A stretch of 64,000 nt of DNA from an uncultured Piscirickettsiaceae bacterium (GCA_964344785.1 CAYFOR010000001.1:22723-86722), one strand, 5' to 3'. Shown: positions 1-38,313, counted from the first letter of the stretch. The notes: generated by a model from the letters alone, not told the origin. Made by a program: numbers and translations.

Positions 1-957
1 CTCCTTGTGCATGGGGAAATAGAGATAGCGGGTAGACGCCAGCTCGTCCTCACTCATGACGGAGAATTGCCCTCTCTGGCGCCACTTGAGATACTCCGAA
101 CGGTAAAATTCACGGATCTTTGCCAGCAGTGGCTTGGGCCGAACCCCCCGTTTTCCCGGACGTACCCAGTGTGCCACATGAGCAATCGCAAGATCAATGA
201 AACCGCGATGGCTGGATAGCCAGCCCCGAGAGGCCCCACGCTTCCAGTTCTGGAGGATGAAGTCCACCGTTTTCGGTCTCTCCCGAAAGCGGTTGATAAA
301 TGCCTTTGCATCGTCACTGACCTCTGCCTGCGATGCGCGCTTTTCAGCGTATAGCGCATGTCCCATCTCGTTGAACATCCAGCGGTTGGTGGTCCAGTAG
401 GAGCGTTTCGAATGGATCTTCGACTGTCTACCCTGAATAAAGGGAATCCCCATCTTCTGTGCCAATAGCGAAGCAGAGAAGTAGTGGGGAGAGGCCCCGT
501 TGCCACAGAGGATCAGATCGGGCTGGAAGCGCTCAATCACTTCGACAGTAAACTCAAACATCGCCGCCACCACACGACGCGGCACCTCATTGTCTCGTAG
601 CGACGCCTTGCCCCCGGCATTGTCCGGCCAGAGATAGCTGGAGAAGCCGAACGCCCGCCCGATGTCCCGCTCGCCAGCAAGTACGATTCGATTAACCGAA
701 ACCCCGGAGACATGCTCACACTCGGAGATGAGCGCCTCTGTCTCCTTCTTGACCGGTTTTTTCAGAATCTCCGCAGCATGAAAGTCAGGAAGGAAGAAAA
801 AATCCTCTTCTGCCACCATCCCCTGATACTCCTTGCGTGCAGCGACCGGACAGAGTACGGCGATTTTCCAATTTTCCTGCTTCCTGGCATGCTCGAGAAA
901 GGAGAGGTAATACGTACGGCGCAGGCCGTGAGGAAGAAAGAGAACGCGTTTTGACAT
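1..957 (-). CDS. Large polysaccharide-biosynthesis protein; N-terminal ~319 aa only, C-terminus lies beyond the window start. Possibly a KpsC/KpsS-like capsule transferase fold.
   Basis: Hand translation from ATG at 957..955 (MSKRVLFLPHGLRRTYYLSFLEHARKQENWKIAV...ILCGNGASPHYFSASLLAQKMGIPFIQ...) stays open to position 1. It is absent from the ORF track because there is no stop codon inside the window. The track ORFs 54..506, 537..719 and 785..997 are in other frames of the same DNA. Confidence 0.55.
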   Translation of the reverse strand, partial: MSKRVLFLPHGLRRTYYLSFLEHARKQENWKIAVLCPVAARKEYQGMVAEEDFFFLPDFHAAEILKKPVKKETEALISECEHVSGVSVNRIVLAGERDIGRAFGFSSYLWPDNAGGKASLRDNEVPRRVVAAMFEFTVEVIERFQPDLILCGNGASPHYFSASLLAQKMGIPFIQGRQSKIHSKRSYWTTNRWMFNEMGHALYAEKRASQAEVSDDAKAFINRFRERPKTVDFILQNWKRGASRGWLSSHRGFIDLAIAHVAHWVRPGKRGVRPKPLLAKIREFYRSEYLKWRQRGQFSVMSEDELASTRYLYFPMHKE

Positions 958-974
958 AGAGTTTAAAGAGGTGG

Positions 975-1718
975 TTAACGGTCCAATGCACGCTCACCGA
1001 GATATTCGAACGTAGTCAGCTTGCGTACATTATCCTGCTGAACCTCATAGCGCCCTTTCAGGTTTCTTTTCAGAAAATTGACATTCTTCGCCCTACCATC
1101 CACCAAAATGTAGAAATCGTTGGGGGCACTGCTTTCATAGAGGAGGATATCCGCAGAGAGATCTGCACGAAGCCATTGACCACCCTCACCAAAACCGAGA
1201 CCGTCTATCTCTCCCTGTACGCTGGCAGAAGAAGGGCCATCCAGATAGACAAAATTAGGAACGATATTGGGTAGTGAGTCGAACCGGAAACAGAGCTGCC
1301 CACTCAACTCCCGAACAGAGACTGTTGAGTAATGAAAAGTTACAAATTCCTGTAGCTCCTCGGGAACCTTCTTGCTGGTATTCTCCAGCCAATACTGTTC
1401 CGGGTCTACCGTCCAGAGTTTTCCCGGATGGCCCTCTTCACTATTCCTCTTCAGCGCATAGGCCATCAGAATTGAGGAGAAACCCACGCCAAACTCAAGC
1501 ACCACTTGGGGTCGACGGCTACGAATCAGGCGATAGAGATTGGCCAGATCATGATACATGGGACGAAACTCCTCTTCCGCTCCACGCTCCAGATAGGCCA
1601 ATGCTCCCTCATTACGCAGAAATGACTCTGACTCAACAATCAGATGCGGCAGATTGCGTTTTGTCTCCGCATCACGAAAGCGTGTTCGAAGAGAAAAGAG
1701 TTTACCCATTAATCCCAC
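975..1718 (-). CDS. Class I SAM-dependent methyltransferase
   Basis: 247-aa ORF with motif I VVLEFGVGFSS; lies inside the glycan locus on the same strand. Confidence 0.65.
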   Translation of the reverse strand: MGLMGKLFSLRTRFRDAETKRNLPHLIVESESFLRNEGALAYLERGAEEEFRPMYHDLANLYRLIRSRRPQVVLEFGVGFSSILMAYALKRNSEEGHPGKLWTVDPEQYWLENTSKKVPEELQEFVTFHYSTVSVRELSGQLCFRFDSLPNIVPNFVYLDGPSSASVQGEIDGLGFGEGGQWLRADLSADILLYESSAPNDFYILVDGRAKNVNFLKRNLKGRYEVQQDNVRKLTTFEYLGERALDR

Positions 1719-1727
1719 ACTGACCTC

Positions 1728-3644
1728 CTACGAGCCGATCTCAGCGATCACTCTTTCCACAAGACTTGCCGCATCCAGACGGTGGTAACCCAACACCTCA
1801 TCATTGAGACCACAGGCGGGAACCTCTTCTACCCCCCAGCGTACAATCTTTCTGTTCCCGGCGAGACCTGCCGCAGCAAGGTGCGAGGTGAGCATCTCAC
1901 CCATCCCCCCTGTCACATAGTGATCATCCAGAGTAATCACGGTGCCAACCTCACCCAATACATTTTGCAACCACGCAGTGTCGATACGGTTGAGCCAGGG
2001 TTGATTGACCACTTTAAGCCCCACACCATGTTCATCCCGCAGCGTCTGCGCCGCTTTCCACGCCTCACTCAGAAGAACAGAGCCATAGGCAAAGAGCGTG
2101 GCATCCCCCCCTTCAGTCACCTCAACACCTCGTCCCAATTCCACGTTATACGCCTGCGGAAGCTGGAAAGGGACGTGATAGGGGATCGTGATCAGGCGCA
2201 GATAGGTGCTTTCACCGTTCTCTTCTACCGCCCAACGCAGTGCCTGCTTCACCTCACTCTCACAACAGGGCTGGAAGAGAGAGAGGCCCGGTACGGCGGC
2301 CAGCGCCGAGATGTCACGCACCGACTGGTGGGAGTGCCCTGGGCCAGAGGGGAGAACCCCAGCCAGGGACCCGGCATAGATGCTCTTGGTACCTTCGGTG
2401 GCATTGTTGTAGAAGTGCTCGTTCGGGCGTGTGGAGAGGAAGCAGGCGAAGGAGTGCACCACCGGGAGAAAACCCTGCAACGCCATACCACCCGCCTGAG
2501 AAACCATATCCTGCTCGGCAATACCACACTCGATGAAACGGTCAGGGAATGCCTTGGCAAACGGAATGAGGCCACAATCGAGCATCAGGTCAGCATCCAG
2601 TACCAGTAGCTCGGGATACTCTTTACCCAGCGCCAACAGCTCCTCGGCATAGGCGGCAATCAGTTTCTGCGGTTGCTGCGGCACTGCTTTCACAGGTCTT
2701 GGCTTGCCGACCAGGCTCAGCTCCGGCAGCTCCAGCGACTGCAGTTGCCGGTTGGCACTCTCCACCAGCTCTGCCATCGCTTTCTCGTAGTCCTCTTCCG
2801 AGGGGGCACCGCTGTGATAGCCATAGAGTTCGTCTTCCGCCAGTTCACCCGGCTCCATAAAGGAGACACCGCATCCCTTGACGGTATCTGCAACGATCAC
2901 TTTGGGACGGTCAGAAACTTCGGCACAACGCGTCATGGCCGCAGTAAGCGCCTCCAAGTCATTGCCATCACACCGGTCCACATACCAACCGAAGGCAGCA
3001 AACTTCGCCTCCAGATCGCCAAGGTCACTGACACGGGAGACATAGGTATCGGACTGCAGTTTGTTATGGTCAACAATGACAGTGATGTTGTTCACTCCGT
3101 TATTGACGGTGGGGCTGAGAGACTCCCAGAACTGCCCCTCCTGCAACTCCCCATCTCCGGTAAGGACATAGTAGTGACTCTCGTGACCACGCAAACGATC
3201 GGCAATGGCCATACCGCGCGCCTTGGAGATCCCCATACCGAGAGAGCCGGTGTTGGTAACGATGTGATCAGTCTCCACATCAGGGTGCCCCGGGAGGCCA
3301 TCAAGACGACGCAACTGCTGCAGCCCCTCTTCCGGTAACAGGCCGCAACCGATCATTACAGCATAGATACCGGGGACGTCATGCCCTTTGGAGGAGAAGA
3401 AGATATCACGAGGTTCTGCCCCCCCCTCCTGGTTGACCCGGCGCAATACGTTAAGGAAGAGCCAGGAGAAGATATCCATGCTGCTGAAACTGGAACCAAT
3501 ATGGCCAGAACCTGCATAAGAGATCATGGAGAGGGTGTTGATGCGTGACAATGTGGCGAAGAGCCGGGTACGGGCAACGGGGTCGCCATCGTGGCTACGC
3601 ACTGCCTGTAGTTGACTTACGGGGACGAAACGAATCTCGGACAT
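1728..3644 (-). CDS. Transketolase, full length (ThDP-dependent)
   Basis: 638 aa; N-terminal GSGHIGSSFSSMDI and the GDGELQEG ThDP-binding motif; Pyr and C-terminal transketolase domains are present. Confidence 0.85.
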   Translation of the reverse strand: MSEIRFVPVSQLQAVRSHDGDPVARTRLFATLSRINTLSMISYAGSGHIGSSFSSMDIFSWLFLNVLRRVNQEGGAEPRDIFFSSKGHDVPGIYAVMIGCGLLPEEGLQQLRRLDGLPGHPDVETDHIVTNTGSLGMGISKARGMAIADRLRGHESHYYVLTGDGELQEGQFWESLSPTVNNGVNNITVIVDHNKLQSDTYVSRVSDLGDLEAKFAAFGWYVDRCDGNDLEALTAAMTRCAEVSDRPKVIVADTVKGCGVSFMEPGELAEDELYGYHSGAPSEEDYEKAMAELVESANRQLQSLELPELSLVGKPRPVKAVPQQPQKLIAAYAEELLALGKEYPELLVLDADLMLDCGLIPFAKAFPDRFIECGIAEQDMVSQAGGMALQGFLPVVHSFACFLSTRPNEHFYNNATEGTKSIYAGSLAGVLPSGPGHSHQSVRDISALAAVPGLSLFQPCCESEVKQALRWAVEENGESTYLRLITIPYHVPFQLPQAYNVELGRGVEVTEGGDATLFAYGSVLLSEAWKAAQTLRDEHGVGLKVVNQPWLNRIDTAWLQNVLGEVGTVITLDDHYVTGGMGEMLTSHLAAAGLAGNRKIVRWGVEEVPACGLNDEVLGYHRLDAASLVERVIAEIGS

Positions 3645-3677
3645 AGTTCTCAGCTTTTTGTTGGTCGAAAGGTATCT

Positions 3678-5156
3678 TCAGATGGAATCGGGATTCACAA
3701 TCATGTAGACATCTTTCAGGTCGGAATAGATATCGAGTGCCTCGGTACCGGGTTCACGGCTACCGTTGCCTGACTGCTTCACCCCACCGAAAGGCATGTG
3801 TGGTTCCGAACCATAGGTTCCTGCATTCACCACCACAACGCCAGAGTGGGCATTATGGGTAAACTGCATGGCACGGTCGAAGCTACGGGTATGGATAGAG
3901 GCGGTGAGGCCATAGGGGCTGTCATTGGTCATCTCCAATGCCTCCTCGAAGTCACTCACCCGGTAGAGGGTGGCAATGGGGCCGAACAGCTCACAGGTGG
4001 AAATCTCGTCACTGGGTGTAACCCCTTCCACCAGCGTAGGGGCCATGTAGTAGCCATTGGCATGCTCTGGGGTCTCCAGTCGTTTGCCTCCGGCAAGCAG
4101 TGTTGCACCGGCCACGACCGCACGCTCGACCGAGCCGACCATATTATCCAGCTGACGCTGGTTGATTACCGGTCCAAGGTCATCGCCATCGTTTGGCCCA
4201 ATCTTGAGATTGGCAGTCGCTTCTACCAGCATTTTCTTGAAACGGTCGTAGACGGCATCAAAGATGATGATGCGACTTCCTGCTGCACAGCGCTGCCCGG
4301 CATTACTGAAGGCGGAGAGACAGACCCACTTCACCGCATTCTCCAGATCGGCATCATCACAGACCACCAGTGGATTCTTCCCCCCCAGTTCAAGCGAGAC
4401 CTTGGCCAACCGCTTGCCTGCCTGTTCGGCAATCCAGCGCCCCACACCCGTGGAGCCGGTAAAGCTGATCACATCGACCCCTTCGTGTTCAACGATGGGG
4501 GCACCCGCCTCCAGCCCCAACCCCTGGATCACGTTGAGCACCCCTTTCGGTATGCCGACAGCGTGGGCAACCTCGGCAAAGAGCCAAGCCGTAGCAGGCG
4601 TATCCTCTGCCCCCTTGAGCACCACGCCATTACCGCAGATCAGCGCAGGAAACACCTTCCAGGCCACATTGGCAATCGGGGTGTTGGCTGCAATAATGAG
4701 TCCCGCCACACCACAGGGCTGACGGATGGTCATGGCATATTTATTCTCCGCACCGCTGGTGGTGGTGCGGCCATAGAGGCGTTGCCCCTCACCCGCATAG
4801 AAACGGCCCAGGGCAATGGCACCACCGGTCTCTCCAAGCGCCTCCTGATAGCTCTTGCCGGTCTCCAGCGCCACAGTTCGCGCCATCTCTTCCTGGCGAC
4901 CTTCCAGCAGGTTACAGATCTTGTGCAGCAGATTGCCACGCTGCACTGCTGGTGTTTTGGCCCAAGCAGGCTGCGCAGATCGCGCCGCACTTACCGCAGC
5001 ATCAACATCCTCCTTATGGGAGCGTGCGAGATGGGAGATCACCTCTCCACTGTGAGGAGAGTATTTCTCCACCCACTCCCCACAAAGAGCAGGAACCTCT
5101 TCCCCATTGAGCCAGTTTGGAATTTGTTGTGGAAATGGTTGGTGTTCACTTGCCAT
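3678..5156 (-). CDS. NAD(P)-dependent aldehyde dehydrogenase
   Basis: 492 aa; ELGGKNP (catalytic Glu) and GQRCAAGSR (catalytic Cys) motifs. Confidence 0.85.
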   Translation of the reverse strand: MASEHQPFPQQIPNWLNGEEVPALCGEWVEKYSPHSGEVISHLARSHKEDVDAAVSAARSAQPAWAKTPAVQRGNLLHKICNLLEGRQEEMARTVALETGKSYQEALGETGGAIALGRFYAGEGQRLYGRTTTSGAENKYAMTIRQPCGVAGLIIAANTPIANVAWKVFPALICGNGVVLKGAEDTPATAWLFAEVAHAVGIPKGVLNVIQGLGLEAGAPIVEHEGVDVISFTGSTGVGRWIAEQAGKRLAKVSLELGGKNPLVVCDDADLENAVKWVCLSAFSNAGQRCAAGSRIIIFDAVYDRFKKMLVEATANLKIGPNDGDDLGPVINQRQLDNMVGSVERAVVAGATLLAGGKRLETPEHANGYYMAPTLVEGVTPSDEISTCELFGPIATLYRVSDFEEALEMTNDSPYGLTASIHTRSFDRAMQFTHNAHSGVVVVNAGTYGSEPHMPFGGVKQSGNGSREPGTEALDIYSDLKDVYMIVNPDSI

Positions 5157-5170
5157 CTGATTTTAATCCT

Positions 5171-5983
5171 TTAAAGTGCGGTCCAGCCGCCATCGATCAC
5201 CATGTTGGAACCGGTCATGTAGGATGAGGCATCCGACATCAGAAAGACCGCCGCACCGTTGTACTCCGACTCATCCGCCATTCTCCCCATCGGCACACGA
5301 CCACAATAATTCTCCAGAAACTCCTCATCCTGGTGATTGAAGACGCCACCAAAGGAGAGCACGTTGGCCCGAACCCCCTGCCGTCCCCAGTAGGCCGCCA
5401 GATAGCGGGTGAAGTTGATCAGTGCAGACTTGGAGGTCGCATAGGCGACCGGTTTGTAGAAGACTTCCCCTCGCTGGCGACGATATTCGTAGATGGACTG
5501 GTCGGGGGAGACCATGCCGTAGGTGGAGCCGATGTTGACGATGGAACCGCCCCCTGCTTTCGCCATCATTTCACCGAATACCTGACAGGCGAGGAAGATG
5601 CCGGTTACATTCACCTCCATCACCTTGCGGAAAGACTCCTCAGGGTAGCTCTCGAAAGGGCCATTCTCTTCCGCAGGTGCCCCCGGCGGCGAGTCGAGGG
5701 CAGCGTTGTTGATCAGCCCGTAGGGGGTGCCGAGCTTCTCTTTAACTCTCTCTGCCGCCGCCACCAGTGCGCCACGATCGGTAATGTCTGCGCCAACAAA
5801 GAGCACACGCTCCTCCCCCAACGAAACGAACTCTTCTGCCAGCTCACCGATACCGGGAAGATCGATCACTGCCACCTTGGCACCATGCTGCAACAGTGTC
5901 CGGGTAAATTGTCGCCCCAACTGCCCCAGGCCACCGGTTACCACCACCACACGATCCTTGAGATCGAATAACTCTGTACCCAT
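5171..5983 (-). CDS. Short-chain dehydrogenase/reductase (SDR)
   Basis: 270 aa; N-terminal VVVVTGGLGQLG Rossmann motif. Confidence 0.8.
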   Translation of the reverse strand: MGTELFDLKDRVVVVTGGLGQLGRQFTRTLLQHGAKVAVIDLPGIGELAEEFVSLGEERVLFVGADITDRGALVAAAERVKEKLGTPYGLINNAALDSPPGAPAEENGPFESYPEESFRKVMEVNVTGIFLACQVFGEMMAKAGGGSIVNIGSTYGMVSPDQSIYEYRRQRGEVFYKPVAYATSKSALINFTRYLAAYWGRQGVRANVLSFGGVFNHQDEEFLENYCGRVPMGRMADESEYNGAAVFLMSDASSYMTGSNMVIDGGWTAL

Positions 5984-5991
5984 AACGTTCT

Positions 5992-6522
5992 CTATTTCTC
6001 GTTAAACACTGAAACGATGAGGTCGCAAACCTCACGCACCGCGCCTTTGCCACCCAACAGTTGTGTACGGTAGCGACCATACGGGATCACATCCGGGTGA
6101 GAGTCCTGTACCACGATTGGCAGACCCACAACCTCCAGACAGGAGATATCGTTGATGTCATTGCCCATGAATGCGGCCTGCTCAGGCTTCAGCCCGCGCT
6201 GCTCCAACATTTCCAGAAGAACTCCACGCTTCTCATCACACCCCTGAACATAGGGCAGGCCCAACTTTTTACAGCGAGCCCCTACCACGGGATTCACCTC
6301 CTTGGAGATGACACACATCTCGACTCCCAGCTTGCGCAGCTCTGCCAGTCCCATGCCATCCAAGCGAGAACAAGCGACCGCTTCACGCCCGTCTTCCAGT
6401 ACATAGACCCCGTTATCGGTAAAGACTCCATCGAAGTCGAAGGCGATAAAGCGAAGTGTGCGGATACTCTCCTTCAGCCCTTCCGCTATCGGAACGGTAA
6501 AGAGGGGAGAAACCGATCTCAT
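5992..6522 (-). CDS. KdsC-family HAD phosphatase (3-deoxy-ulosonate/nonulosonate-phosphate phosphatase)
   Basis: 176 aa; FDFDGVFTDNGVY and MGNDINDISCL motifs typical of KdsC/YrbI. Its stop overlaps the start of the adjacent NeuB gene. Confidence 0.7.
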   Translation of the reverse strand: MRSVSPLFTVPIAEGLKESIRTLRFIAFDFDGVFTDNGVYVLEDGREAVACSRLDGMGLAELRKLGVEMCVISKEVNPVVGARCKKLGLPYVQGCDEKRGVLLEMLEQRGLKPEQAAFMGNDINDISCLEVVGLPIVVQDSHPDVIPYGRYRTQLLGGKGAVREVCDLIVSVFNEK

Positions 6523-7571
6523 TCGCTCAGGTTTTCAAAGAGGAGATTTTCATCCTCTGCGATCGGTCTCAGTGCCTTGCGTCCGAGAATTGCACCCATT
6601 TCATAAGGTGGCAGACCATCACCCGGGGACTTGATGGCGATATCCTCTTCGGTCAATACATGCCCTTCGGGCAAGGCACGAGCTGCAACCAGCTTCTTGC
6701 CCATCTTGTGCATCGGGGCAAGCTCCGATTCATAGACCGACTTGGCACCACTACCCAGTGCCAATCGGGTCCGGCGCAGATCACGCACCATACGACGCAT
6801 GCCTGGAGGTGCCAGGGAGAAGGCATGATCGGACCCTTTCATGGTACGGTCCAGTGTGAAATGCTTCTCGATGACCCGTGCTCCAAGAACATAGGCCACC
6901 ACACTCATGGCAATACCGTTATCGTGCGATGAGAGGCCGATGGTCGCCTCTGGAAAATCTTGACGAAAACTCTCAATGACTCTCAGATTGAGTTCTTCCC
7001 ATTTGGGTGGATATCCGGCAGTACACTGCAGAATACAGAACTGTTCATTGATGGGCATCACCTCTTCATAGACACGACGCACATCGTCGATGGTTCCCCC
7101 TCCTGTACTCACGATCACGGGCTTGCCAAATGAGGCGACATGCTTGATCAGTGGCAGATTTTTCAGGTCTCCGGAGGCGATCTTGTAGAGTGGCATCTCC
7201 AGCTCTTCCAGAAAATCTGCACTCTGAATATCAAAGGGTGTGGAGAACATCGTCAGCCCCAACTCCTTTGCATACCCCTGCAGCTCTACATACTCATCAT
7301 GCCCCAGTTCCAGCGCCTCACGATGCTCACCATAGGTCGGGGCAAAAGCACTATGGCTGTTATAGGTTTGCCCAAACATCTCCTTGGTAAACAGAGAGCG
7401 GTTATTCCGTTTCTGCAGTTTGACCGCGTCAGCACCACATTCCTTGGCGGAGTCGAAAAGCTTCTTGGCAAGCTCGACACTACCCTGGTGGTTATGCCCA
7501 ATTTCTGCGATGACATAACAGTCGCTCTCATCATCGACCCGCTTTCCGTCAATCTCTAGTCCTCTAGCCAT
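6519..7571 (-). CDS. N-acetylneuraminate (nonulosonate) synthase family protein, NeuB/PseI/LegI-like, with C-terminal SAF domain (paralogue 1)
   Basis: 350 aa; VIAEIGHNHQGS, TIGLSSHD and VIEKHFTLDR motifs; SAF domain at the C-terminus. Confidence 0.85.
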   Translation of the reverse strand: MARGLEIDGKRVDDESDCYVIAEIGHNHQGSVELAKKLFDSAKECGADAVKLQKRNNRSLFTKEMFGQTYNSHSAFAPTYGEHREALELGHDEYVELQGYAKELGLTMFSTPFDIQSADFLEELEMPLYKIASGDLKNLPLIKHVASFGKPVIVSTGGGTIDDVRRVYEEVMPINEQFCILQCTAGYPPKWEELNLRVIESFRQDFPEATIGLSSHDNGIAMSVVAYVLGARVIEKHFTLDRTMKGSDHAFSLAPPGMRRMVRDLRRTRLALGSGAKSVYESELAPMHKMGKKLVAARALPEGHVLTEEDIAIKSPGDGLPPYEMGAILGRKALRPIAEDENLLFENLSE

Positions 7572-7644
7572 TTCACTTCCCTTGTTGAGCGTCGAAATTC
7601 GACGTGTCTACTATTTAAAGATAAATTGATCCGTACCCAGTGCC

Positions 7645-8352
7645 CTACTTCTTGCGCGAGAGGATAAACTCTGTCAGTTCGATATCCCATTCGGTATCTA
7701 TGCTGACAAACTCCCCTTCCAGCACAAGAGCACCGGTCTTCCGCCCCTTCATTTTTCCCTGCTCCATCACACACTCACGGGTCAGTGCATAGCAGACCCC
7801 ATTGCGATGATAGACCGGCTTAAGCTGCTGACGGGCGACGATCTCGGCCCCCTTGGGATCGTAGTAATCCAGCTGATCCTCTTCCCCAACCACTAGCTGT
7901 TTCAACGGATGCCCCTTCGAGTCGGTCTCGGACAGTGTCCAGACCGAATCAAGATCTTCCTCCACCAGCTTTCGAATGGTAGCCTCCACCTGCTCCGGCT
8001 CTCGCAGCGGTGCTGTGGGCTGAAGAAGAACCGCAATATCGTAGCGCACACCATCGATCCGTTCACACTCCTGCAGCGCATGCTGCAGAACCGGAATATC
8101 GGCAATACGATCCCCTGCCAGGTCATCCGGGCGCATGAAAGGGGCCGCCAGCCCCGCTTCTGCTGCCACCCGTGCAATCTCTGCATGGTCTGTAGAGATC
8201 ACCGCACGATCGATCAACGGTACTTGACGCACAACATCCCCCACCAGCGCTACCATCGGCCGTCCACCGATCTTGCGCAGGTTCTTCAGCGGAATCCCCT
8301 TGCTGCCACCACGCGCCTGACAAACTGCCAGTACCCTTTTCCCTTCGATCAT
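7645..8352 (-). CDS. CMP-nonulosonate synthetase (acylneuraminate cytidylyltransferase family)
   Basis: 235 aa; ARGGSKGIPLKN glycine-rich loop of the NeuA/KdsB fold. Confidence 0.8.
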   Translation of the reverse strand: MIEGKRVLAVCQARGGSKGIPLKNLRKIGGRPMVALVGDVVRQVPLIDRAVISTDHAEIARVAAEAGLAAPFMRPDDLAGDRIADIPVLQHALQECERIDGVRYDIAVLLQPTAPLREPEQVEATIRKLVEEDLDSVWTLSETDSKGHPLKQLVVGEEDQLDYYDPKGAEIVARQQLKPVYHRNGVCYALTRECVMEQGKMKGRKTGALVLEGEFVSIDTEWDIELTEFILSRKK

Positions 8353-26962: not shown

Positions 26963-26975
26963 TGACTGGGTTCCG

Positions 26976-29718: not shown

Positions 29719-30411
29719 TCACCAAAGCTCACGAATCACCACAAAGGCCTCGGCCGCCATACAACCGACACTACAACCCCGAAATCCGGCCAGATGACGT
29801 ACCCCTTCCATAGACCGGGGGTGAGGAAATGGCCTCATCTCATCTGCATAGGCCTCAAGTGCCTCCATCTTTTGCTCCAGTTGCTGCGATATATCGACAT
29901 AGCGGACAGGGCGAAAGCCCGTTTGATCCACTGAGGGGACGGACCACTCCGTACTGGACAGCGTCTCAAAACAGTAGATGGAGCGTTTATGCGTGCCCGG
30001 CATCGGACGTGTTGCGGTGATCACGGCCTGATGCACGATACGATGATCTACATTCAGATCCCCACCATGATGAGTGTAGATGATATCCGGATCCACCTCC
30101 TGGATGACTGCTTCAATCGGCTTGATCACATCCAGCAGGTCCCCCCGATCAAGACGGTTATCTGGAAAGCAGAGAAACGTTGGATCATCATATCCTAGGA
30201 TATCGGATACCTGACATGCCGCCTGCTTCAACCGATCAACCTCATCCGAGGCACCATCAGCTTCCTCCCCACCTTTTCTGGAAGTGGCCCCCTCGGCAAC
30301 AATCAAAACAGAGACACGGTCCCCTTCCATCACATGGCGTGCAATGGTCCCTCCGCAACCGAGCACTTCATCATCCGGATGGGCAGCAACGACTAATACG
30401 GTTTGTGACAC
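29719..30411 (-). CDS. PIG-L/LmbE-family N-deacetylase
   Basis: 230 aa; AHPDDEVLGCGG signature. Confidence 0.8.
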   Translation of the reverse strand: MSQTVLVVAAHPDDEVLGCGGTIARHVMEGDRVSVLIVAEGATSRKGGEEADGASDEVDRLKQAACQVSDILGYDDPTFLCFPDNRLDRGDLLDVIKPIEAVIQEVDPDIIYTHHGGDLNVDHRIVHQAVITATRPMPGTHKRSIYCFETLSSTEWSVPSVDQTGFRPVRYVDISQQLEQKMEALEAYADEMRPFPHPRSMEGVRHLAGFRGCSVGCMAAEAFVVIRELW

Positions 30412-30469
30412 TGGCTTGTATCCTTCTTGTTTCAGTCTATAAGGTAGAGCAGTCTTTCTCAGGGAATGG

Positions 30470-31675
30470 TCAGTCTACCCCTAACTCTTCCATCAACCCA
30501 GCAGCGATAAACTCCACATCCGCATCCTGCAGGGATGGATAGAAGGGGATGGAGAGGGTACGAGCATAGTAGCGGTCTGCGCCATCCAGCTGGCTCTCCC
30601 CATAACGGTTGCAATAGTAGGGTTGCCGATTGATGGGAAGGTAGTGCACCTGTGTGCCGATCCCACGCTGGGACAGCCCTCTCATCATCTCGCCACGCTC
30701 ACGCCCCAACCCCTCAAAATCGATCAATACAGGATAGAGGTGTAGCGCATTGTCACTGAACTGCTGCTTCCTGACCGGTACCAGAACTGGTGCTGCCGCT
30801 TCCAGCAGTTGATCATATTGTGACTCAATCTGGCGGCGCCGCTGCAGAAAGCGGGAGAGCTTACCCAGCTGACTCAATCCCAATGCGCAGTGAATATCAC
30901 TGGCACGGTAGTTATAACCCAGCTCCTGCATCTCGTAATACCACGGGTTGGCACTCTCATCACTCCCAAACCCCTGTGTCTGGTCCTGCCACTGCCGGGC
31001 GTCACGTGTCATCCCATGATTACGCAGCAGCGATGCACGTGCAGCCATTGCATCATCATTACAAGTGACCGCTCCCCCTTCACCCATGGCAATATGTTTT
31101 ACCGGGTGAAACGAGAAAATGGTGAGATCACTATGGGCACAGTCACCGACAGCATAGTTGCTACCATCGCGGCTTCTATAACGTGTTCCCAGTGCATGAC
31201 ATCCATCCTCAACAACATACAATCCATGTTGCCGGGCATACTGGGCCAAAGGCTCCATCTCCACACACTGTCCGTTCAGGTGAACCGGAAAGACCGCTTT
31301 GACCGGGCCTTCTGCCCGTTCTACTGCATTCTTGAGGGTCTCTACGTTCATCAACCCCGTATCCGGGTCTACATCGGCAAATACCACCTCTCCACCGACA
31401 AAACGGATGGCATTGGCAGTGGACAGAAAGGTAACCGCAGGTACTACAACCCAATCACCAGGCCCAATACCGAGGACCATCGCGGCCAAGTGCAGTGCGG
31501 CAGTACCATTCGCGCAAGCGACTGCATGTCGACTCTCAACCTGTTTGGCAAGCGCCTCTTCGAAAGCGCTTACGGCTGGGCCGGTCGTTAGATAATCCCC
31601 CATCAAGACTGCCGATACCGCAGCCACGTCATCCTCATCGATCTGCTGACGGGCATAGGGGAAAAAACGGCTCAT
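30470..31675 (-). CDS. pseC: DegT/DnrJ/EryC1-family sugar aminotransferase (PseC-like)
   Basis: 401 aa; the PLP-lysine region [15 protein letters not shown] and the C-terminal [12 protein letters not shown] motif typical of PseC. Confidence 0.75.
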
Positions 31676-32238
31676 GAACGGATTGGCTCCAGCCCGTCAT
31701 CCCCCTTCTGATAACGTGTCCCACACTCCGGGCAGGCGAGCTGTTCATCCAGTTTTACTCCACAGCTGCAGGCCCACCCCTTCTGCCTGGCAGGGTTTCC
31801 CACCATCAATGCATGATCAGGAATATCCCGTGTTACCACCGCACCAGCCCCGATCAGGCAGTACCGTCCCAACGTGTTGCCACAGATGATGGTGGCATTC
31901 GCTCCGATTGTGGCGCCCCGCTTGACCCGAGTCTCACGATATTCATGTTTGCGGGAGACATGGGCACGCGGATTGATCACATTGGTAAAGACCATGCTTG
32001 GACCACAAAAGACATCCTCTTCCAGCACCACACGATCATAAAGGGAGACATTATTCTGGATCCGTGCATTGTCTCCAATTATCGCCTCATTGCCGACAAA
32101 GACATTTTGCCCTAAGGAGCAACCAGCACCAATCCTCGCTCCAGAACAGACATGTACCCAGTGCCAAATTGCAGTACCATCACCAATAGTCGCACCCTCA
32201 TCTACAATAGCGGAAGGGTGAATGTTGATATTATCCAA
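31672..32238 (-). CDS. wbpD: Hexapeptide-repeat (LbH) N-acetyltransferase (WbpD/WlbB-like)
   Basis: 188 aa of left-handed beta-helix hexapeptide repeats. Confidence 0.7.
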
Positions 32239-32241
32239 GCG

Positions 32242-33330
32242 TCAAAGCTCCAACGGCAGTGAGACCTGTTTTCCATCACGCGCCGAAAGATATGCTGCGA
32301 TCAGCAGTTCAAGTGAACGCAATCCTTCCCTACCATCGGTCTCTGGCCCTGCCTCGCCACGTAGCGTCTGGATCACATTATGGTAGTAGAGCGGATGACC
32401 AAAACCATATACGGAGGTGGTCTGATAGCTTGCTTCACGGATTTTTTCATCCTCTTCCCGCGGCTCATCAAACTCCCAGTGCTGAATCTCATTCACGGCT
32501 ACACCACCAACCCGTACCGTCCCCTTCTCACCGATGATGGTGATGGAACCTTCCATATTTTTAGGATAGGTGAGCATGGTGACGCTCATGGAACCCAACG
32601 CACCGGAGCGCCACCGAACATTCATCACGGCGGTATCCTCCACCTCGATATTGCGCGCCAAGGTTCCCGTCATTGCCTGTACGCTATGGACTGGTCCAAT
32701 CAGCCAATCGAGCAGATCGACATAGTGGCTTGCCTGATTCATCAGTGCACCACCATCAAACTCCCAGGTGCCACGCCAACCGGCACTGTCATAGTACTCC
32801 TGTGGACGGGTCCAGAAAACGTTGACATGGACCATGAAGATCCGCCCGAACCGCCCTTCATCCACTGCCTTCTTGAGTAACTGCAAGGTGGCATTACGCC
32901 GATTCTGCTTCACCACGAAGAGGCGGACACCAGCTTCATCACACGCCTGTACCATGGACAGTCCGTCTTTCCAACGGGTCGCCATCGGTTTTTCGGTCAT
33001 GATATGACGCCCTGCTCTGGCACACTGAATGGCCTGCTCCGGATGTTGGCCGCTGGGTGTACAGATGGTCACCAGATCAACATCCGACTGTTCCAGCATG
33101 GATTGGAGATCACCGTAAGGCGCAGCCCCGGTGGCCTCACTCGCCCTCTGCAGAACGCCGGAGTCTGCATCACAGACTGCTGCCAGCTCAATCTGATCCC
33201 CATGCTTCTTGACCGCCTCGAAGTGCTTTTGGGCGATACGGCCACACCCCACCAAACCAAAACGGATTTTTCGATCAGAAATAATTTTGGCGCCAGTACT
33301 CATTCTGCTACACCGTTGCCAAGCCAGCAA
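32242..33330 (-). CDS. wbpB: Gfo/Idh/MocA oxidoreductase (WbpB-like UDP-GlcNAcA 3-dehydrogenase)
   Basis: IRFGLVGCGRIAQKH Rossmann motif; sits between the wbpD-like and wbpA/wbpE-like genes. Confidence 0.7.
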   Translation of the reverse strand: MLAWQRCSRMSTGAKIISDRKIRFGLVGCGRIAQKHFEAVKKHGDQIELAAVCDADSGVLQRASEATGAAPYGDLQSMLEQSDVDLVTICTPSGQHPEQAIQCARAGRHIMTEKPMATRWKDGLSMVQACDEAGVRLFVVKQNRRNATLQLLKKAVDEGRFGRIFMVHVNVFWTRPQEYYDSAGWRGTWEFDGGALMNQASHYVDLLDWLIGPVHSVQAMTGTLARNIEVEDTAVMNVRWRSGALGSMSVTMLTYPKNMEGSITIIGEKGTVRVGGVAVNEIQHWEFDEPREEDEKIREASYQTTSVYGFGHPLYYHNVIQTLRGEAGPETDGREGLRSLELLIAAYLSARDGKQVSLPLEL

Positions 33331-33336
33331 AGTGGC

Positions 33337-34779
33337 TTACCGCCCATAAATATCCTCAAAACGAACAATATCATCCTCTCCAAGATAACTCCCCGACTGC
33401 ACTTCGATCATCTCCAGAAGCAGTTTCCCGGGGTTTTCAAGCCGATGTCGGGCACCTACCGGAATATGAATGGACTCATTTTCACTGAGCAGAAGTTCTT
33501 CCTCTCCTCGAGTCACCTTTGCGGTTCCCTTCACTACAATCCAGTGTTCAGCCCTGTGATGGTGCATCTGTAAACTGAGACTGGCCCCGGGTTTCACCGT
33601 AATCCGCTTGACCTTGAATCGATATCCCTCATCGATACAGTCATAGGTGCCCCAGGGGCGTGCCGTATGGCTATGTTCAGTCGCTTGCGGCAGCTCCTCT
33701 TCTTTGAGCTGAGTAACCACCTCCTTGACCTGTTCGGCATGGCTGTTATCTGCAACAAGCAGCGCATCCTGGGTATCGATAATCAGGAGATTACTGGTAC
33801 CTAGGGCCACTACAGGTCGATGTGGAGCATGGATATAGGTATTTTCTGCGGAATGTACTCTTCCCTTCCCATATACGTGATTATTCTCACCATCTCCGGG
33901 AGAGAGATCTGCAACCGCATTCCAGCTACCCACATCACTCCAAACCCCTTTAAAAGGGACCACTGCAATGGAGTATTGCCCATCAGGGTCTGACGCCACC
34001 TTCTCCAGCAGCGCATAATCGATCGACTCGCTACGACACTCCGCAAATGCATCATGGTCGAGGTAGTGAAAATCACCACTTACACGCTGCTTCTCTACCG
34101 CACTGCAACTTGACTCCAGAATATCCTCGGCATAGCCATCCAGTGCATTGATCAGAACGTCCGCCTTGGCAAGAAAAATCCCGGCATTCCAGTAGTACTG
34201 TCCACTACACAGATAGCGATCCGCCGTCTCAAGGTCGGGCTTTTCAACAAACTCCTCCACTTCGAAAGCAGCCTGATTCTCATTGGAGCCATGTGCCCGT
34301 TTGATATAGCCATAGGCGGTACTGGGGAAGGTAGGCTCAATGCCAAAGGTGACCACGGACCCTTTTTCTGCCTCCGCAACACCACTTTCGATCGTTTCAG
34401 CAAAACGTTCCACATCTGGAATATGGTGGTCTGCCGGTACGAACAGCAGCAGTCGATCCCCTCCGTGCGACTGCCTGATATTCAAGGCCGAAACCGCAAT
34501 GGCTGCTGCGGTATTGCGCCCTACAGGTTCAAGCAGATGGACAACCTCCATGCTGGCTGCCTCTGCCGCTTCGGCAACAAGAAAGCGGTGCTTCTCACTG
34601 GCAACAATCCAGGTCTTGTGATCTTCGTGGCTGCTTAGCGATTTGGTCCTCTCCAGAGTAGCCTGCAGCAGGCTTTTTCCACCAATGAGAGGTACAAACT
34701 GTTTGGGCAGGGATGCTCGAGAAAGGGGCCAGAGGCGTGTCCCGGAGCCGCCAGCCAATATCACCGGTGTTACATTCAC
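33337..34779 (-). CDS. manC: Mannose-1-phosphate guanylyltransferase / mannose-6-phosphate isomerase (bifunctional ManC/AlgA type, C-terminal cupin)
   Basis: 480 aa; VILAGGSGTRLWPLS N-terminal motif and a C-terminal cupin. Confidence 0.85.
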   Translation of the reverse strand: MNVTPVILAGGSGTRLWPLSRASLPKQFVPLIGGKSLLQATLERTKSLSSHEDHKTWIVASEKHRFLVAEAAEAASMEVVHLLEPVGRNTAAAIAVSALNIRQSHGGDRLLLFVPADHHIPDVERFAETIESGVAEAEKGSVVTFGIEPTFPSTAYGYIKRAHGSNENQAAFEVEEFVEKPDLETADRYLCSGQYYWNAGIFLAKADVLINALDGYAEDILESSCSAVEKQRVSGDFHYLDHDAFAECRSESIDYALLEKVASDPDGQYSIAVVPFKGVWSDVGSWNAVADLSPGDGENNHVYGKGRVHSAENTYIHAPHRPVVALGTSNLLIIDTQDALLVADNSHAEQVKEVVTQLKEEELPQATEHSHTARPWGTYDCIDEGYRFKVKRITVKPGASLSLQMHHHRAEHWIVVKGTAKVTRGEEELLLSENESIHIPVGARHRLENPGKLLLEMIEVQSGSYLGEDDIVRFEDIYGR

Positions 34780-34825
34780 TATTTTGCGATGCTGTTGCGT
34801 TGAGATTGCAGGCGAGTCAAGAGCG

Positions 34826-36100
34826 TTACAGCCGTAAGTCTACCTCTTCACTGGAGAAGAGATATTTCACATCATACAGCACATGTTCCGCTTTACCTAA
34901 AGCGCGCACTTGAGAGGCCCCCAGTGCCCTGAACTGATCGTGTGCGACGGCCAGTATAATCGCATCATAACTGGAAGTTTGGGGTTCGCCAATCAGCTCA
35001 ATTCCATACTCTTCTGAGGCATCTTCCGGGTTTACCCAAGGGTCGTAGACATCAACGCTGCAGCCATACTCACCAAGCTCATTGATGATATCGGTCACCC
35101 GAGTATTCCGTAGATCCGGGCAGTTCTCCTTGAACGCAAGCCCCATAACCAGTACTCGTGCCCCATCGACCTGAATACGGCGTTTGGTCATCACCTTGAC
35201 CAGTTGGCTGACTACATACTCACCCATTCCATCATTCATTCGCCGTCCGGCCAGAATGATCTGCGGGTGATAACCAATCGCCTCGGCCTTGTGGGTCAGG
35301 TAGTACGGGTCCACTCCGATACAGTGCCCTCCAACCAGCCCCGGCCGGAACGGCAGGAAGTTCCATTTACTTCCCGCTGCCTCCAGTACGGCCTGTGTGT
35401 CAATTCCCATACGGTTGAAGATCAGCGCCAGCTCATTGACCAGCGCAATATTGAGATCACGCTGAGTATTCTCAATCACCTTGGCCGCTTCCGCCACTCG
35501 AATACTGCTGGCCTTGTGGGTACCCGCAGTAATGACTTGCAGATAGAGTTCGTTGACAAAGTCAGCCACCTCGGGTGTTGAGCCGGATGTCACCTTCTTG
35601 ATTGTGGTAACACGGTGTTCCTTATCCCCCGGATTGATCCGCTCTGGGCTGTAACCACAATAGAACTGCTCGTTGAACTTCAGTCCCGACTCCTTCTCAA
35701 GCACAGGAACACAATCCTCTTCGGTCGCCCCTGGATAGACAGTAGACTCATAGATCACAACATCCCCTTCTTTGAGGACTGATCCAACAGAACGGCTGGC
35801 ACTAATCAGTGGTGAAAGATCGGGCCGCTTATAGTCATCGATTGGTGTCGGAACGGTGACGATAAAGCAGTTGCATTGCCTCAGGGCCTGCAGATCGGTT
35901 GTAAAGCTAAGCTGTGTGGCAGCCTGAAGCTCCTTTTCGGTTGTCTCCAGCGTTGAATCAACTCCTGATTCCAGCTCATCAATACGCTGCTGGTTGATAT
36001 CAAAACCAACAACCGAGCGAATCCGCCCAAACTCGACAGCCAGAGGTAACCCCACATAGCCAAGACCGATAATGGCTAGTTTTACATCAGATAATTTCAA
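34826..36100 (-). CDS. wbpA: UDP-N-acetyl-D-glucosamine 6-dehydrogenase (WbpA/WecC-type nucleotide-sugar dehydrogenase)
   Basis: 424 aa; [16 protein letters not shown] motif and the central catalytic Cys region. Confidence 0.8.
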
Positions 36101-36146
36101 GTAAGCGCCCTCATCAAGTACTGTTTATTACTTCACCATCAACTGC

Positions 36147-37241
36147 TCAGCCCAACGCCTCTTTCAACCCTTCTACCACCAACTGTTGATCTGACTCCGT
36201 CAGATAGGGGTGCATTGGAAGGCTCAGTACCCGCTGGGCAAGAGACTCTGCCACTGGCAAATTGACCTCCCCCACCCCTCTCGCCTGCAATGCTGGCTGA
36301 TGATGCAAAGGCAGCGGATAGTGTACTGCAGTCGGGATATCTTTCTGCTTCAGCTCAGCCACTACTTTGTCCCGCTCATCCACCTGAACGGTGTACTGTG
36401 CATATACCGACTGATTATACGGTTCAATGCGCGGTGTCCTGCAGGCCACTTCAGATAACAACGTGGAGTAGCGTTCACCCACTTCCCTTCTCGCAATCAC
36501 CTCCTGTGGAAATTTGGGGAGTTTTGCCAATAACATGGCTGCTTGCAAGGTATCGAGTCGTCCGTTTACACCGATTGAGGCATGCTGATACCGTCTACTC
36601 TGTCCGTGTATTCGAAACTCTCTGATCCGCTGTGCGAACTGGGGATCATTTGTGAAACAGGCACCGCCATCACCAAACCCTCCGAGCGGCTTGGATGGAA
36701 AAAAGCTGGTACAGCCAACATTACCCAGGCTGCATGCCATGCGTCCTTTGTAGGTCGCACCAAAGCTCTGCGCACCATCCTCGATCACAACCAGATTGTT
36801 TCTCTCTGCAACCTCATTGATTGGATCGTAGTCAGCACACTGGCCATAGAGGTCCACAGGAATGATCGCCTTGGTCTTTGGCGTGACCTTCTTCTCCAGC
36901 TGCTGCGGGTTGAGGTTGTAGTTTTCTGGATCCACATCCACAAAAAGAGGGGTTGCCCCCAACAGCATGATCACCTCTACTGTGGCAAAGAAGCTGAACG
37001 GGGTTGTGATCACCTCATCCCCTTGCCCAATATCTGCCGCCATCAGCGCCAACAGAAGTGCATCCGTTCCACTGGACACTGCAATGCAGTGCTCAACGCC
37101 TACATAGGCCCGCAAGACCGCCTCCAACTCCTCAACTTCAGGCCCCATAATATAGCGCCCATGCTGAAATACCTGATCAATACGATCCCGAACTTCCTGT
37201 TCAACCCCCTGAAACTGGGATTTGATATCAAAAAACTGCAC
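36147..37241 (-). CDS. wbpE: DegT-family aminotransferase, WbpE-like (UDP-2-acetamido-2-deoxy-3-oxo-glucuronate aminotransferase)
   Basis: 364 aa; collinear with P. aeruginosa WbpE (GDEVITTPFSF, TKAIIPV(D/S)LYGQCAD, RLDTLQAA(M/I)LL, AVHYP(L/I)PL(H/N)(H/K)QPA). Confidence 0.85.
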   Translation of the reverse strand: MQFFDIKSQFQGVEQEVRDRIDQVFQHGRYIMGPEVEELEAVLRAYVGVEHCIAVSSGTDALLLALMAADIGQGDEVITTPFSFFATVEVIMLLGATPLFVDVDPENYNLNPQQLEKKVTPKTKAIIPVDLYGQCADYDPINEVAERNNLVVIEDGAQSFGATYKGRMACSLGNVGCTSFFPSKPLGGFGDGGACFTNDPQFAQRIREFRIHGQSRRYQHASIGVNGRLDTLQAAMLLAKLPKFPQEVIARREVGERYSTLLSEVACRTPRIEPYNQSVYAQYTVQVDERDKVVAELKQKDIPTAVHYPLPLHHQPALQARGVGEVNLPVAESLAQRVLSLPMHPYLTESDQQLVVEGLKEALG

Positions 37242-37267
37242 GAGCTAAAGGCTCAGGTTAGCCCCAA

Positions 37268-38278
37268 TCAGATGTTGTAATACTCTTTGTACCACTGCAC
37301 AAAGCGTTCGATTCCTGATGCCACGGTGGTCTCAGGCTTGTAATCAAACTGCTCTACCAGGTCGTCCACATTGGCATAGGTATCGGGCACATCTCCTGCC
37401 TGCAGCGGCAACAGCTCTTTCGTTGCAGTCATTCCCAACGAGTTCTCCAGCGCCTCGATGTAGTCCATCAACTCAACAGGCTTGTTGTTCCCAATATTGT
37501 AGACCCGCCATGGTGCCTTGCTGGTACCGGGATCGGGATCGCCACTATCCCACTCTTCATTCCCCATTGCAGGCCGATCCAGCACCCGGATCACTCCCTC
37601 TACGATATCGTCGATATAGGTGAAGTCACGGCGGTGCTTACCGTAGTTGAAGACCTGAATCGGCTCTCCAGCCAGAATCGCCTTGGTGAACTTGAAGAGC
37701 GCCATATCGGGCCGTCCCCATGGCCCATAGACCGTAAAGAAACGCAGTCCGGTTGTCGGTAATTCGTACAGATGGCTATAGGCATGCGCCATCAACTCAT
37801 TTGATTTTTTACTTGCCGCATAGAGACTTATCGGGTGATCAACATTCTGGTGCACCGAAAACGGCATGGCCGTATTTGCGCCATACACACTGGAGCTGCT
37901 GGCATAGACAAAATGCTCGACACCATGATGCCGGCACCCTTCCAGAATATGAACAAAACCGACGATATTGCTATCGACATAAGCCATCGGATTTTCAATC
38001 GAATAGCGTACACCCGCCTGGGCCGCCAGGTTGACTACCCGATTGGGTTTGTGGGTTGCAAAGGCGCTTTCAACCGCCTCCCGGTCCCCAAGATCAATTC
38101 TCAGATGGGTATAGGCCGGATGACCTGCATAGCGTGCCAACCGCGCCTCTTTGATTTTGGGGTCATAATAGTCGTTGTGGTTATCGATTCCGATCACCTC
38201 ATCGCCACGCTCCAACAACCGCAATATCAACGTAGAACCAATAAACCCAGCCGCACCTGTAACAAGAACTTTCATCAC
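37268..38278 (-). CDS. NAD-dependent epimerase (UDP-glucuronate 4-epimerase family); first gene of the locus
   Basis: [31 protein letters not shown]. The track start is GTG 38278; ATG at 38275 is an alternative. Confidence 0.8.
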
Positions 38279-38301
38279 GTCTTCCCAATATTTATTAACA
38301 G

Positions 38302-38313
38302 CACGCTACCGCC
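38302..38313 (-). promoter_or_regulatory. ops element (RfaH-recruiting site) in the 5' leader of the glycan operon
   Basis: Plus strand reads cacgctaccgcc; its reverse complement is 5'-GGCGGTAGCGTG-3', an exact match to the 12-nt ops consensus. It lies ~25 nt upstream of the first gene's start and is followed by GGGAAGA (RBS). Confidence 0.6.

Follow-up and report, generated by a model that had tools for sequence, protein, structure and literature searches.

A single-strand, ops-preceded glycan locus with three NeuB-family synthases in an uncultured Piscirickettsiaceae bacterium

The DNA analysed (the window, meaning the whole stretch of 64,000 nucleotides (nt); GCA_964344785.1 CAYFOR010000001.1:22723-86722) comes from an uncultured Piscirickettsiaceae bacterium, and positions 1 to 38,313 hold a glycan locus with three NeuB-family synthases, read from a single strand and preceded by an ops element. 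An earlier note on this DNA had claimed such a locus, and both the gene scans and an exact ops match bore it out. The open reading frame (ORF) listing, together with Pfam and NCBIfam scans, gave 35 complete minus-strand genes and one edge-cut gene, running from position 38278 down to position 1; the single-strand run was thereby confirmed, while the number of consecutive genes, put earlier at about 37, is 36. The intergenic gaps in this run do not exceed 156 bp and overlaps of 4 nt are frequent, some of them spanning the borders between modules (e.g. the overlap of the TylF-type gene with that of a 473-amino acid (aa) protein, and of a 541-aa protein gene with that of the ATP-binding cassette (ABC) exporter). 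No convincing intergenic terminator was found between the genes of the run. The ORF starts listed for several genes lie slightly too far upstream; the true start is 13848 for the gene ending at 12427 and 15732 for the ABC gene. The leader contains the following element:

38302-38313, minus strand: ops element GGCGGTAGCGTG, the sole exact match in the 64-kb window, in the operon leader

The ops core (GGCGGTAGnnTG) is found exactly once, where 0.13 copies would be expected in a window; it precedes the first gene by ∼25 nt, and a promoter-like site (38447-38418) lies upstream of the element. Since all the genes lie on the same strand with gaps of ≤156 bp, a unique ops in the leader and no convincing terminator, the 36-gene run is best read as a single, long ops-preceded transcription unit. 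The exact 12-mer is present despite a low JUMPstart score for the region (38302-38330, minus strand), which may mean that the ops core here lacks the usual JUMPstart hairpin. At the other end, the locus extends past window position 1, where the leftmost gene (1-957) is cut by the window edge. Look-ups made with the two leftmost complete genes retrieved a 10.9-kb sister metagenome contig that reaches 1.26 kb beyond this edge; it bears the remainder of the Capsule_synth-like gene, followed by a ManD/galactonate-dehydratase-like gene, making the operon at least two genes longer, and a gene missing from the window may therefore still be part of the locus. The window DNA is also present on metagenome contigs of project PRJEB17505.

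The three synthases are encoded as follows:

24919-25971, minus strand: NeuB+SAF synthase 1 (PF03102, 226.8 bits, plus SAF)
6519-7571, minus strand: NeuB+SAF synthase 2 (PF03102, 264 bits, plus SAF)
9011-10540, minus strand: NeuB fused to a D-lyxose-isomerase-like cupin (PF03102, 134.7 bits, plus Cupin_2 and Lyx_isomer)

All three, already recognised as NeuB-like in the earlier note, scored far above the gathering score of the Pfam NeuB model PF03102 (22.1). Their mutual identity is 22-32%, which marks them as old paralogues. When run against the NCBIfam equivalog models for PseI (cut-off 340.25) and NeuB_NnaB (TIGR03569; cut-off 399.65), each remained under both cut-offs: synthase 1 scored 252.7 bits on PseI and 272.2 on NeuB, synthase 2 scored 246 and 303.5, and the NeuB-cupin fusion 110 and 131.7. 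The nearest solved structure for synthases 1 and 2 is that of Bacillus subtilis SpsE. Synthase 1 is nearer to Campylobacter jejuni PseI than to meningococcal NeuB (160 versus 129 bits), synthase 2 shows no preference between these two structures, and the fusion falls in a different clade, the representative of which is PDB 3g8r (317 bits). The best synthase matches were SpsE and genes annotated as either 'neuB' or 'pseI', with 34-40% identity; assignment of the synthases to a pseudaminic (Pse), legionaminic (Leg) or neuraminic (Neu) clade was attempted from solved-structure scores and plasmid annotations, and proved ambiguous.

Synthase 1 is surrounded by genes of a Pse-type front end, together with genes for activation and decoration (where no score is given, the Pfam and NCBIfam scans are the source; score pairs are bits versus cut-off):

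30470-31675, minus strand: PseC (472.2 versus 423.5)
29719-30411, minus strand: PIG-L deacetylase
28534-29562, minus strand: PseB (511 versus 407.75)
27937-28494, minus strand: GNAT protein (PseH, 56.7 versus 93.1)
26976-27944, minus strand: GFO/IDH/MocA oxidoreductase
25985-27007, minus strand: PseG-like protein (138.5 versus 153.55)
23778-24812, minus strand: ATP-grasp protein
22834-23781, minus strand: phosphoglycerate-dehydrogenase-like 2-hydroxyacid dehydrogenase
22100-22837, minus strand: CTP_transf_3 cytidylyltransferase a (CTP_transf_3, 109 bits; PseF, 24.5 versus 205.7)
21239-22090, minus strand: short-chain dehydrogenase/reductase (SDR)
20344-21249, minus strand: S-adenosylmethionine (SAM) methyltransferase
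19639-20343, minus strand: YfcE-type phosphoesterase
18695-19642, minus strand: second ATP-grasp protein
17375-18676, minus strand: class-III aminotransferase

The earlier description of synthase 1 as a canonical PseI within a full PseB/C/H/G/I/F set did not hold. Only PseB and PseC pass their NCBIfam equivalog cut-offs, with PseH, PseG, PseI and PseF all below; the synthase itself slightly prefers the NeuB model; and interleaved with the Pse-type genes are those for the PIG-L, GFO, two ATP-grasp, hydroxyacid dehydrogenase, SDR, methyltransferase, phosphoesterase and aminotransferase proteins. The best solved relative of cytidylyltransferase a is 6oew (137 bits). The other CTP_transf_3 protein of the window (cytidylyltransferase b, 7645-8352) scored 122.6 versus 205.7 on PseF; these two genes account for the two CMP-transferases (CMP, cytidine monophosphate) reported earlier. 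Homologues of PseB, PseC, the GFO oxidoreductase, the class-III aminotransferase, the PseG-like protein and NeuB are grouped in a distant locus (L004), where they adjoin a homologue of the 541-aa protein, and PIG-L and GFO homologues recur in another (L016). Judged from its context, the module would be a variant 5,7-diamino-nonulosonate pathway led by PseB and PseC, yielding a modified product of the pseudaminic type, the N-acyl groups of which would be remodelled by the PIG-L deacetylase, the ATP-grasp ligases, the hydroxyacid dehydrogenase and the methyltransferase, with activation by the cytidylyltransferase at 22100-22837.

The NeuB-cupin fusion belongs to a cassette of its own, accompanied by a methyltransferase gene; the following members were identified in the Pfam and NCBIfam scans:

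11765-12430, minus strand: TylF-type O-methyltransferase
10582-11682, minus strand: GFO/IDH/MocA oxidoreductase
8367-8996, minus strand: HAD phosphatase
7645-8352, minus strand: CTP_transf_3 cytidylyltransferase b

The fusion of NeuB to a cupin, noticed earlier, was verified by the Cupin_2 and Lyx_isomer matches, and its C-terminal cupin matches D-lyxose/D-mannose isomerases. This fusion is widespread: a search with it returned >7000 matches, the best 119 of which, besides the query's own sequence, were all fusions of ∼510-540 aa with 62-85% identity; the named sources among the matches listed were Prochlorococcus, Niveispirillum and a Rhodospirillaceae metagenome-assembled genome (MAG). The gene order in Prochlorococcus MIT 1011 (L011) is GFO oxidoreductase, NeuB-cupin, HAD, CTP_transf_3, and the four genes are also neighbours in a metagenome scaffold (L012) and in polysaccharide loci of Niveispirillum irakense (L014), the cassette proteins of these three sources being 30-84% identical to those of the window. 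Cytidylyltransferase b (7645-8352) shows 50-68% identity to its orthologues in three unrelated cassette loci, and because the four-gene cassette is conserved elsewhere, we regard this protein as the cassette's activating enzyme. Of the earlier pairing of synthase 2 with a KdsC-type phosphatase and a NeuA, the overlap with the phosphatase gene is real; the NeuA (7645-8352) is a member of the NeuB-cupin cassette and no partner specific to synthase 2. A literature search found no functional study of the NeuB-cupin fusion or of PDB 3g8r.

The cassette would work by the KdsD/A/C/B logic of 3-deoxy-D-manno-octulosonic acid (Kdo) synthesis: the cupin would isomerise a ketose to an aldose, NeuB would condense the aldose with phosphoenolpyruvate (PEP), and the HAD enzyme would remove a phosphate, giving a product that would be CMP-activated and O-methylated. 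This product is probably a deaminated acid resembling 2-keto-3-deoxynononic acid (Kdn), an assignment favoured because the cupin is mannose/lyxose-isomerase-like and the cassette has no amino-sugar enzymes. In the closest related NeuB-cupin locus, that of the metagenome scaffold (L012:12226-14216), there come after the cassette another NeuB, which has 295 aa and no SAF domain, and a radical SAM/SPASM protein; the placing of a further synthase beside the cassette is thus recurrent.

Synthase 2 lies next to genes of a sugar-acid type (sources as above for lines without a score):

5992-6522, minus strand: KdsC/YrbI-type HAD phosphatase (KdsC, 117; TIGR01670, 106.8 versus 106.95; Kdn-9-P phosphatase, 74)
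5171-5983, minus strand: SDR
3678-5156, minus strand: aldehyde dehydrogenase
1728-3644, minus strand: fused transketolase-like thiamine diphosphate enzyme
975-1718, minus strand: weak methyltransferase-like protein

The synthase gene (6519-7571) overlaps that of the KdsC/YrbI-type phosphatase by 4 nt, and the presence of this phosphatase implies a phosphorylated intermediate, via which the two enzymes would make a further ulosonic acid. The transketolase-like and Capsule_synth-like genes (1-3644) have one methyltransferase-like gene between them; the same pair is directly adjacent in an Undibacter MAG (L008:300-3541), with 58% (transketolase-like) and 40% (Capsule_synth-like) identity.

The first genes behind the ops element make up a diacetamido-uronic acid module into which manC is inserted:

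37268-38278, minus strand: SDR epimerase/dehydratase
36147-37241, minus strand: WbpE-like aminotransferase (PDB 3nu7, WbpE, 418 bits)
34826-36100, minus strand: WbpA/TviB-type UDP-GlcNAc 6-dehydrogenase (NCBIfam TviB, 677 versus 592)
33337-34779, minus strand: ManC (GMP_PMI, 585 versus 373)
32242-33330, minus strand: WbpB/WlbA-like oxidoreductase (PDB 3q2i, 597 bits)
31672-32238, minus strand: WbpD/WlbB-like acetyltransferase (PDB 3mqg, 252 bits)

With the dehydrogenase and ManC above their cut-offs and strong PDB matches for the others (3q2i and 3mqg are structures that we take to be WlbA and WlbB, respectively), the WbpA/B/D/E pathway and ManC named in the earlier note were recovered, and the predicted presence of a pathway from UDP-GlcNAc to a UDP-2,3-diacetamido-2,3-dideoxy-hexuronic acid is well supported. 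ManC is predicted to supply GDP-mannose/mannose-6-P. No WbpI/WlbD-type 2-epimerase (Epimerase_2, PF02350) was matched at E ≤0.01 among the window-encoded proteins; the full-length Capsule_synth-like protein of the sister contig (L005) gave a sub-threshold PF02350 match (E 0.021).

The remaining genes of the run encode an exporter and three large proteins:

15729-17354, minus strand: 541-aa GT-B-fold protein, candidate CMP-ulosonic acid transferase (overlaps the ABC gene by 4 nt)
13981-15732, minus strand: fused ABC exporter (ABC_membrane plus ABC_tran), HepA/MsbA/PglK-like
12427-13848, minus strand: 473-aa membrane-anchored GT-B-fold protein, candidate nonulosonate transferase (related to BFO_1060/TIGR04396)
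1-957, minus strand: N-terminal part of a Capsule_synth-like putative glycosyltransferase (PF05159, on the full-length sister-contig call)

The three large proteins, called unclassified in the earlier note, are not paralogues of one another, and PDB and Pfam searches with the 541-aa protein, the 473-aa protein and the truncated 1-957 fragment returned nothing above thresholds. They can nonetheless be placed: two model as GT-B proteins and the third matches Capsule_synth, and all are linked to glycan transferases. AlphaFold2 models of the 541-aa and 473-aa proteins (pLDDT 78 and 82, respectively) gave GT-B matches led by TarL, TagF, Bcs3 and SiaD, and on these models both proteins have a GT-B fold, with two Rossmann-like domains. 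A match to the GT38 polysialyltransferase model (PF07388) was below the gathering score of 23.3.

The 541-aa protein has no significant Pfam or NCBIfam match of its own. A word-indexed search had returned only five relatives, as if it were a tiny orphan family, an idea overturned by an exhaustive profile search that gave 1592 representatives (533 with E ≤1e-30). The motifs GHDHG and KPH are invariant in this family, members of which adjoin NeuB or CTP_transf_3 genes in all five loci examined. A 36%-identical homologue (P0003) matches PF27859 ('LIC12162') and, faintly, TIGR04331 (E 6e-5, 21.9 versus 225); the window protein itself matches neither LIC12162 model (TIGR04331/PF27859), and it would be only distantly related to the LIC12162-type family. 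A surf_polysacc and LIC12162 transferase pair also follows neuABC in a Herbaspirillum lipopolysaccharide (LPS) island.

The 473-aa protein scored 76.6 bits on BFO_1060 (cut-off 200, E 1.9e-21) and 74.1 on TIGR04396 (cut-off 125, E about 1e-21), with KPKPK at the expected position of the HP motif; by these scores it is homologous to BFO_1060/TIGR04396, outside the curated family. BFO_1060 orthologues are genetically required in Tannerella for adding Pse/Leg derivatives to mannosaminuronic acid (PMC5420450). The leftmost protein measures 453 aa as called at full length (L005:8884-10245), its length being otherwise put at roughly 499 aa; it matches PF05159 (Capsule_synth) at 24.6 bits versus 20 (E 2e-5), over residues 313-383 only, and TIGR04396 faintly (E 2.6e-5). 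All three large proteins are thus candidate transferases for CMP-activated acids, none of them falling in a curated characterised family.

The exporter matches ABC_membrane and ABC_tran, in agreement with the single MsbA/PglK-like fused exporter described earlier. Its scores are all below cut-off (HepA, 245 versus 725; MsbA, 236 versus 602; PglK, 211 versus 1000), and homologous fused exporters, 29-33% identical, are encoded in three related loci (L012, L009 and L010). It is the sole transporter of the window, which encodes no ABC-2 permease with a separate ATPase (Wzm/Wzt, KpsM/KpsT). Models for Wzx, Wzy, Wzz, Bac_transf, MraY-type, GT2 and GT4 proteins gave no match at E ≤0.01 among the 36 proteins; the claim that Wzx/Wzy/Wzz, a phosphoglycosyltransferase and GT2/GT4 enzymes are missing is therefore right inside the window, and does not extend to the whole locus, the operon continuing for at least two genes.

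The reading that best fits these results, to which we assign a probability of roughly 55%, is that the ops-preceded operon builds a lipid-linked, acidic cell-surface glycan of the LPS O-chain or capsule type from CMP-ulosonic acids. The three large proteins would use the CMP-sugars of the locus, a role proposed because their closest relatives use CMP-releasing donors; the glycan would be built up on a carrier lipid on the cytoplasmic side, and the HepA/MsbA/PglK-like exporter would then flip or export it. The earlier suggestion of a polymer or glycan made from several decorated nonulosonic acids was reasonable in general terms, and wrong or overstated in its Pse set, its NeuA pairing, its 'unclassified' proteins and its view of how complete the locus is.

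Several points weigh against this reading. The Rfam JUMPstart model (RF01707) scored only 18.5 bits at the ops site (gathering score 35, E 0.24; sub-threshold). The sugar identities come from context alone, since all three synthases score below the equivalog cut-offs for PseI and NeuB, and the Kdn-like proposal is a matter of domain logic. Two CTP_transf_3 cytidylyltransferases are encoded in the window for three synthases. Absent from the window are a priming phosphoglycosyltransferase, a ligase, an oligosaccharyltransferase and any outer-membrane component for export; neither the diacetamido-uronic acid nor mannose has an identified transferase; and the fold of the Capsule_synth-like protein is proposed from sequence matches only. 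A bolder form of the same reading, in which a polymer or oligosaccharide is made from three distinct 2-keto-3-deoxy acids, one of them an undescribed CMP-sugar that the cassette produces by a route analogous but not homologous to Kdo synthesis, joined by three biochemically uncharacterised transferase families and exported in HepA/PglK-like fashion by a route distinct from KpsMT, Wzm/Wzt and Wzx/Wzy, strikes us as unlikely in its entirety.

A group-2-like capsule, in which an ulosonic acid polymer is built on a lipid anchor by the Capsule_synth (KpsC/KpsS-like) and polysialyltransferase-like enzymes, with the fused ABC protein replacing KpsMT, overlaps largely with the lipid-linked glycan proposed above and differs from it mainly in the anchor and export route. 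The window has no homologue of KpsM/T (ABC-2), KpsE or KpsD, the Capsule_synth match spans ∼70 residues only, and the GT38 match is sub-threshold; we hold this alternative to be improbable.

Somewhat less probable still is a protein O-glycosylation island serving flagellin, pilin or an S-layer, in which nonulosonates would be terminal or single residues, as in Campylobacter, Helicobacter, Aeromonas and Tannerella, rather than building blocks of a polymer. Heavy tailoring of Pse/Leg derivatives by ATP-grasp, methyltransferase and aminotransferase enzymes is typical of flagellin glycans and speaks for such an island, as does the 473-aa protein, whose nearest relative with experimental support transfers Pse/Leg derivatives in the general protein O-glycosylation of Tannerella; modification of Leptospira proteins with nonulosonic acids (NulO) has also been suggested (PMC3438082). 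Yet in Pfam scans none of the 36 proteins matched a Maf/DUF115/MptE-like or FlmG-type model, no flagellin, pilin or S-layer gene lies in the window, the ops leader and membrane exporter point to an exported, lipid-linked glycan, and the presence of a uronic acid pathway speaks for an oligosaccharide or a repeat unit. The weakest alternative, a mosaic of independent sugar-nucleotide modules, merely co-located and co-oriented, that feed several glycans (LPS, capsule, glycoproteins) with no single product, could draw on the NeuB-cupin cassette standing alone in Prochlorococcus without the other modules, on the separate recurrence of modules across loci, and on the two cytidylyltransferases for three synthases and the lack of matching hexosyl-transferases, which suggest that pathway parts lie elsewhere, but the tight packing with 4-nt overlaps across module borders and the single ops leader with no strong internal terminators or gaps make it very unlikely.

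Upstream of the operon lie genes for tRNA-Ser, pgsA, APS (adenosine 5′-phosphosulfate) kinase and uvrC. A 93-aa ORF (38438-38719, minus strand) is antisense to tRNA-Ser(GGA) (38504-38591, plus strand), has no family match and is almost certainly not a gene. Further along the window there is:

48574-61015, minus strand: dsr-type cluster with two NIR_SIR proteins (DsrAB-like), a Fer4/CCG (DsrK-like), a Pyr_redox+Fer4 (DsrL-like) and an NrfD (DsrP-like) protein, and a CobB/CobQ-like amidase (DsrN-like)

This cluster is consistent with a sulfur-metabolising, sulfur-oxidising host. The APS kinase gene (39361-40002, minus strand) is two genes upstream of the operon. APS kinase, sulfatase and TauE genes also occur in the related NeuB-cupin locus of the metagenome scaffold (L012:1-1784), and three sulfotransferase genes in the Undibacter locus with the Capsule_synth/transketolase pair (L008:5019-8764). 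Such APS kinase, sulfatase and sulfotransferase neighbours may hint at sulfated glycans.

Nonulosonic acids shape the recognition of bacteria by hosts, phages and grazers, and to our knowledge the transferases for these acids are largely unknown. With three candidate transferases beside three synthases in one operon, the locus offers a compact system in which to find out which transferase uses which donor sugar. The cassette shows high conservation across sources as far apart as Prochlorococcus and the alpha- and gammaproteobacteria, and the identity of its product would annotate thousands of genes; for sulfur oxidisers or symbionts, the locus as a whole predicts a surface glycan that is strongly acidic and bears many decorations. 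Its novelty is moderate, because its modules recur elsewhere, the NeuB-cupin cassette is widespread, C. jejuni too has three NeuB paralogues, and clusters with several synthases are known (Leptospira, PMC3438082).

The NulO cluster of Leptospira interrogans likewise brings together several NulO synthases, aminotransferases and CMP-NulO synthetases (PMC3438082). In both systems a NeuB is coupled to a phosphatase, the two being fused in Leptospira and encoded by overlapping genes in the window (PMC3438082), and the LIC12162 family takes its name from a gene of Leptospira. However, the products assigned to the Leptospira cluster are legionaminic and neuraminic acids, whereas the front end in the window is of the PseB/PseC type; the window adds the NeuB-cupin cassette, the diacetamido-uronic acid pathway and the fused ABC exporter; and its 541-aa protein is only a remote LIC12162 relative, without a direct model match. 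Three NeuB paralogues (NeuB1, NeuB2 and NeuB3) also make different nonulosonates in C. jejuni, which has many Pse/Leg tailoring genes. There the paralogues are split between the lipooligosaccharide and flagellar loci, transfer to flagellin takes place via Maf proteins, and none of the paralogues is known to be a cupin fusion; in contrast, all three synthases of the window lie in one operon with the ops leader, the exporter and the GT-B proteins.

The 473-aa protein resembles the products of Tannerella forsythia Tanf_01245, TFUB4_00887 and BFO_1060 in its predicted GT-B/TagB-like fold and in its place beside NulO biosynthesis genes (PMC5420450). The acceptor in Tannerella is N-acetyl-mannosaminuronic acid, to which the predicted diacetamido-uronic acid of the window is related; however, the 473-aa protein scores far short of the cut-off for the family, and protein O-glycosylation is the process served by the Tannerella enzymes. 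The window encodes close homologues of the four WbpA/B/D/E enzymes of Pseudomonas aeruginosa O5 and of Bordetella/Chromobacterium WlbA/WlbB (252-677 bits). The differences are the insertion of manC in the module and the lack of a WbpI/WlbD 2-epimerase in the window, because of which the uronic acid product may be gluco rather than manno. With group 2 capsules of the Escherichia coli K1 type (KpsC/S, NeuS, KpsMT) and with PglK/Wzk/HepA, the locus shares a Capsule_synth-type protein, relatives that use CMP-releasing donors, and ABC-dependent export, but it has no KpsMTED in the window, and its exporter is fused and below the PglK, MsbA and HepA cut-offs. Finally, the isomerase, PEP condensation, phosphatase and CMP activation steps proposed for the cassette parallel those of the Kdo pathway (KdsD/KdsA/KdsC/KdsB) and of the Bacteroides Kdn-9-P synthase/phosphatase; compared with Kdo synthesis, the cassette has a cupin for the SIS-type KdsD, a NeuB for KdsA, a HAD_2 protein for KdsC, and an extra GFO oxidoreductase.

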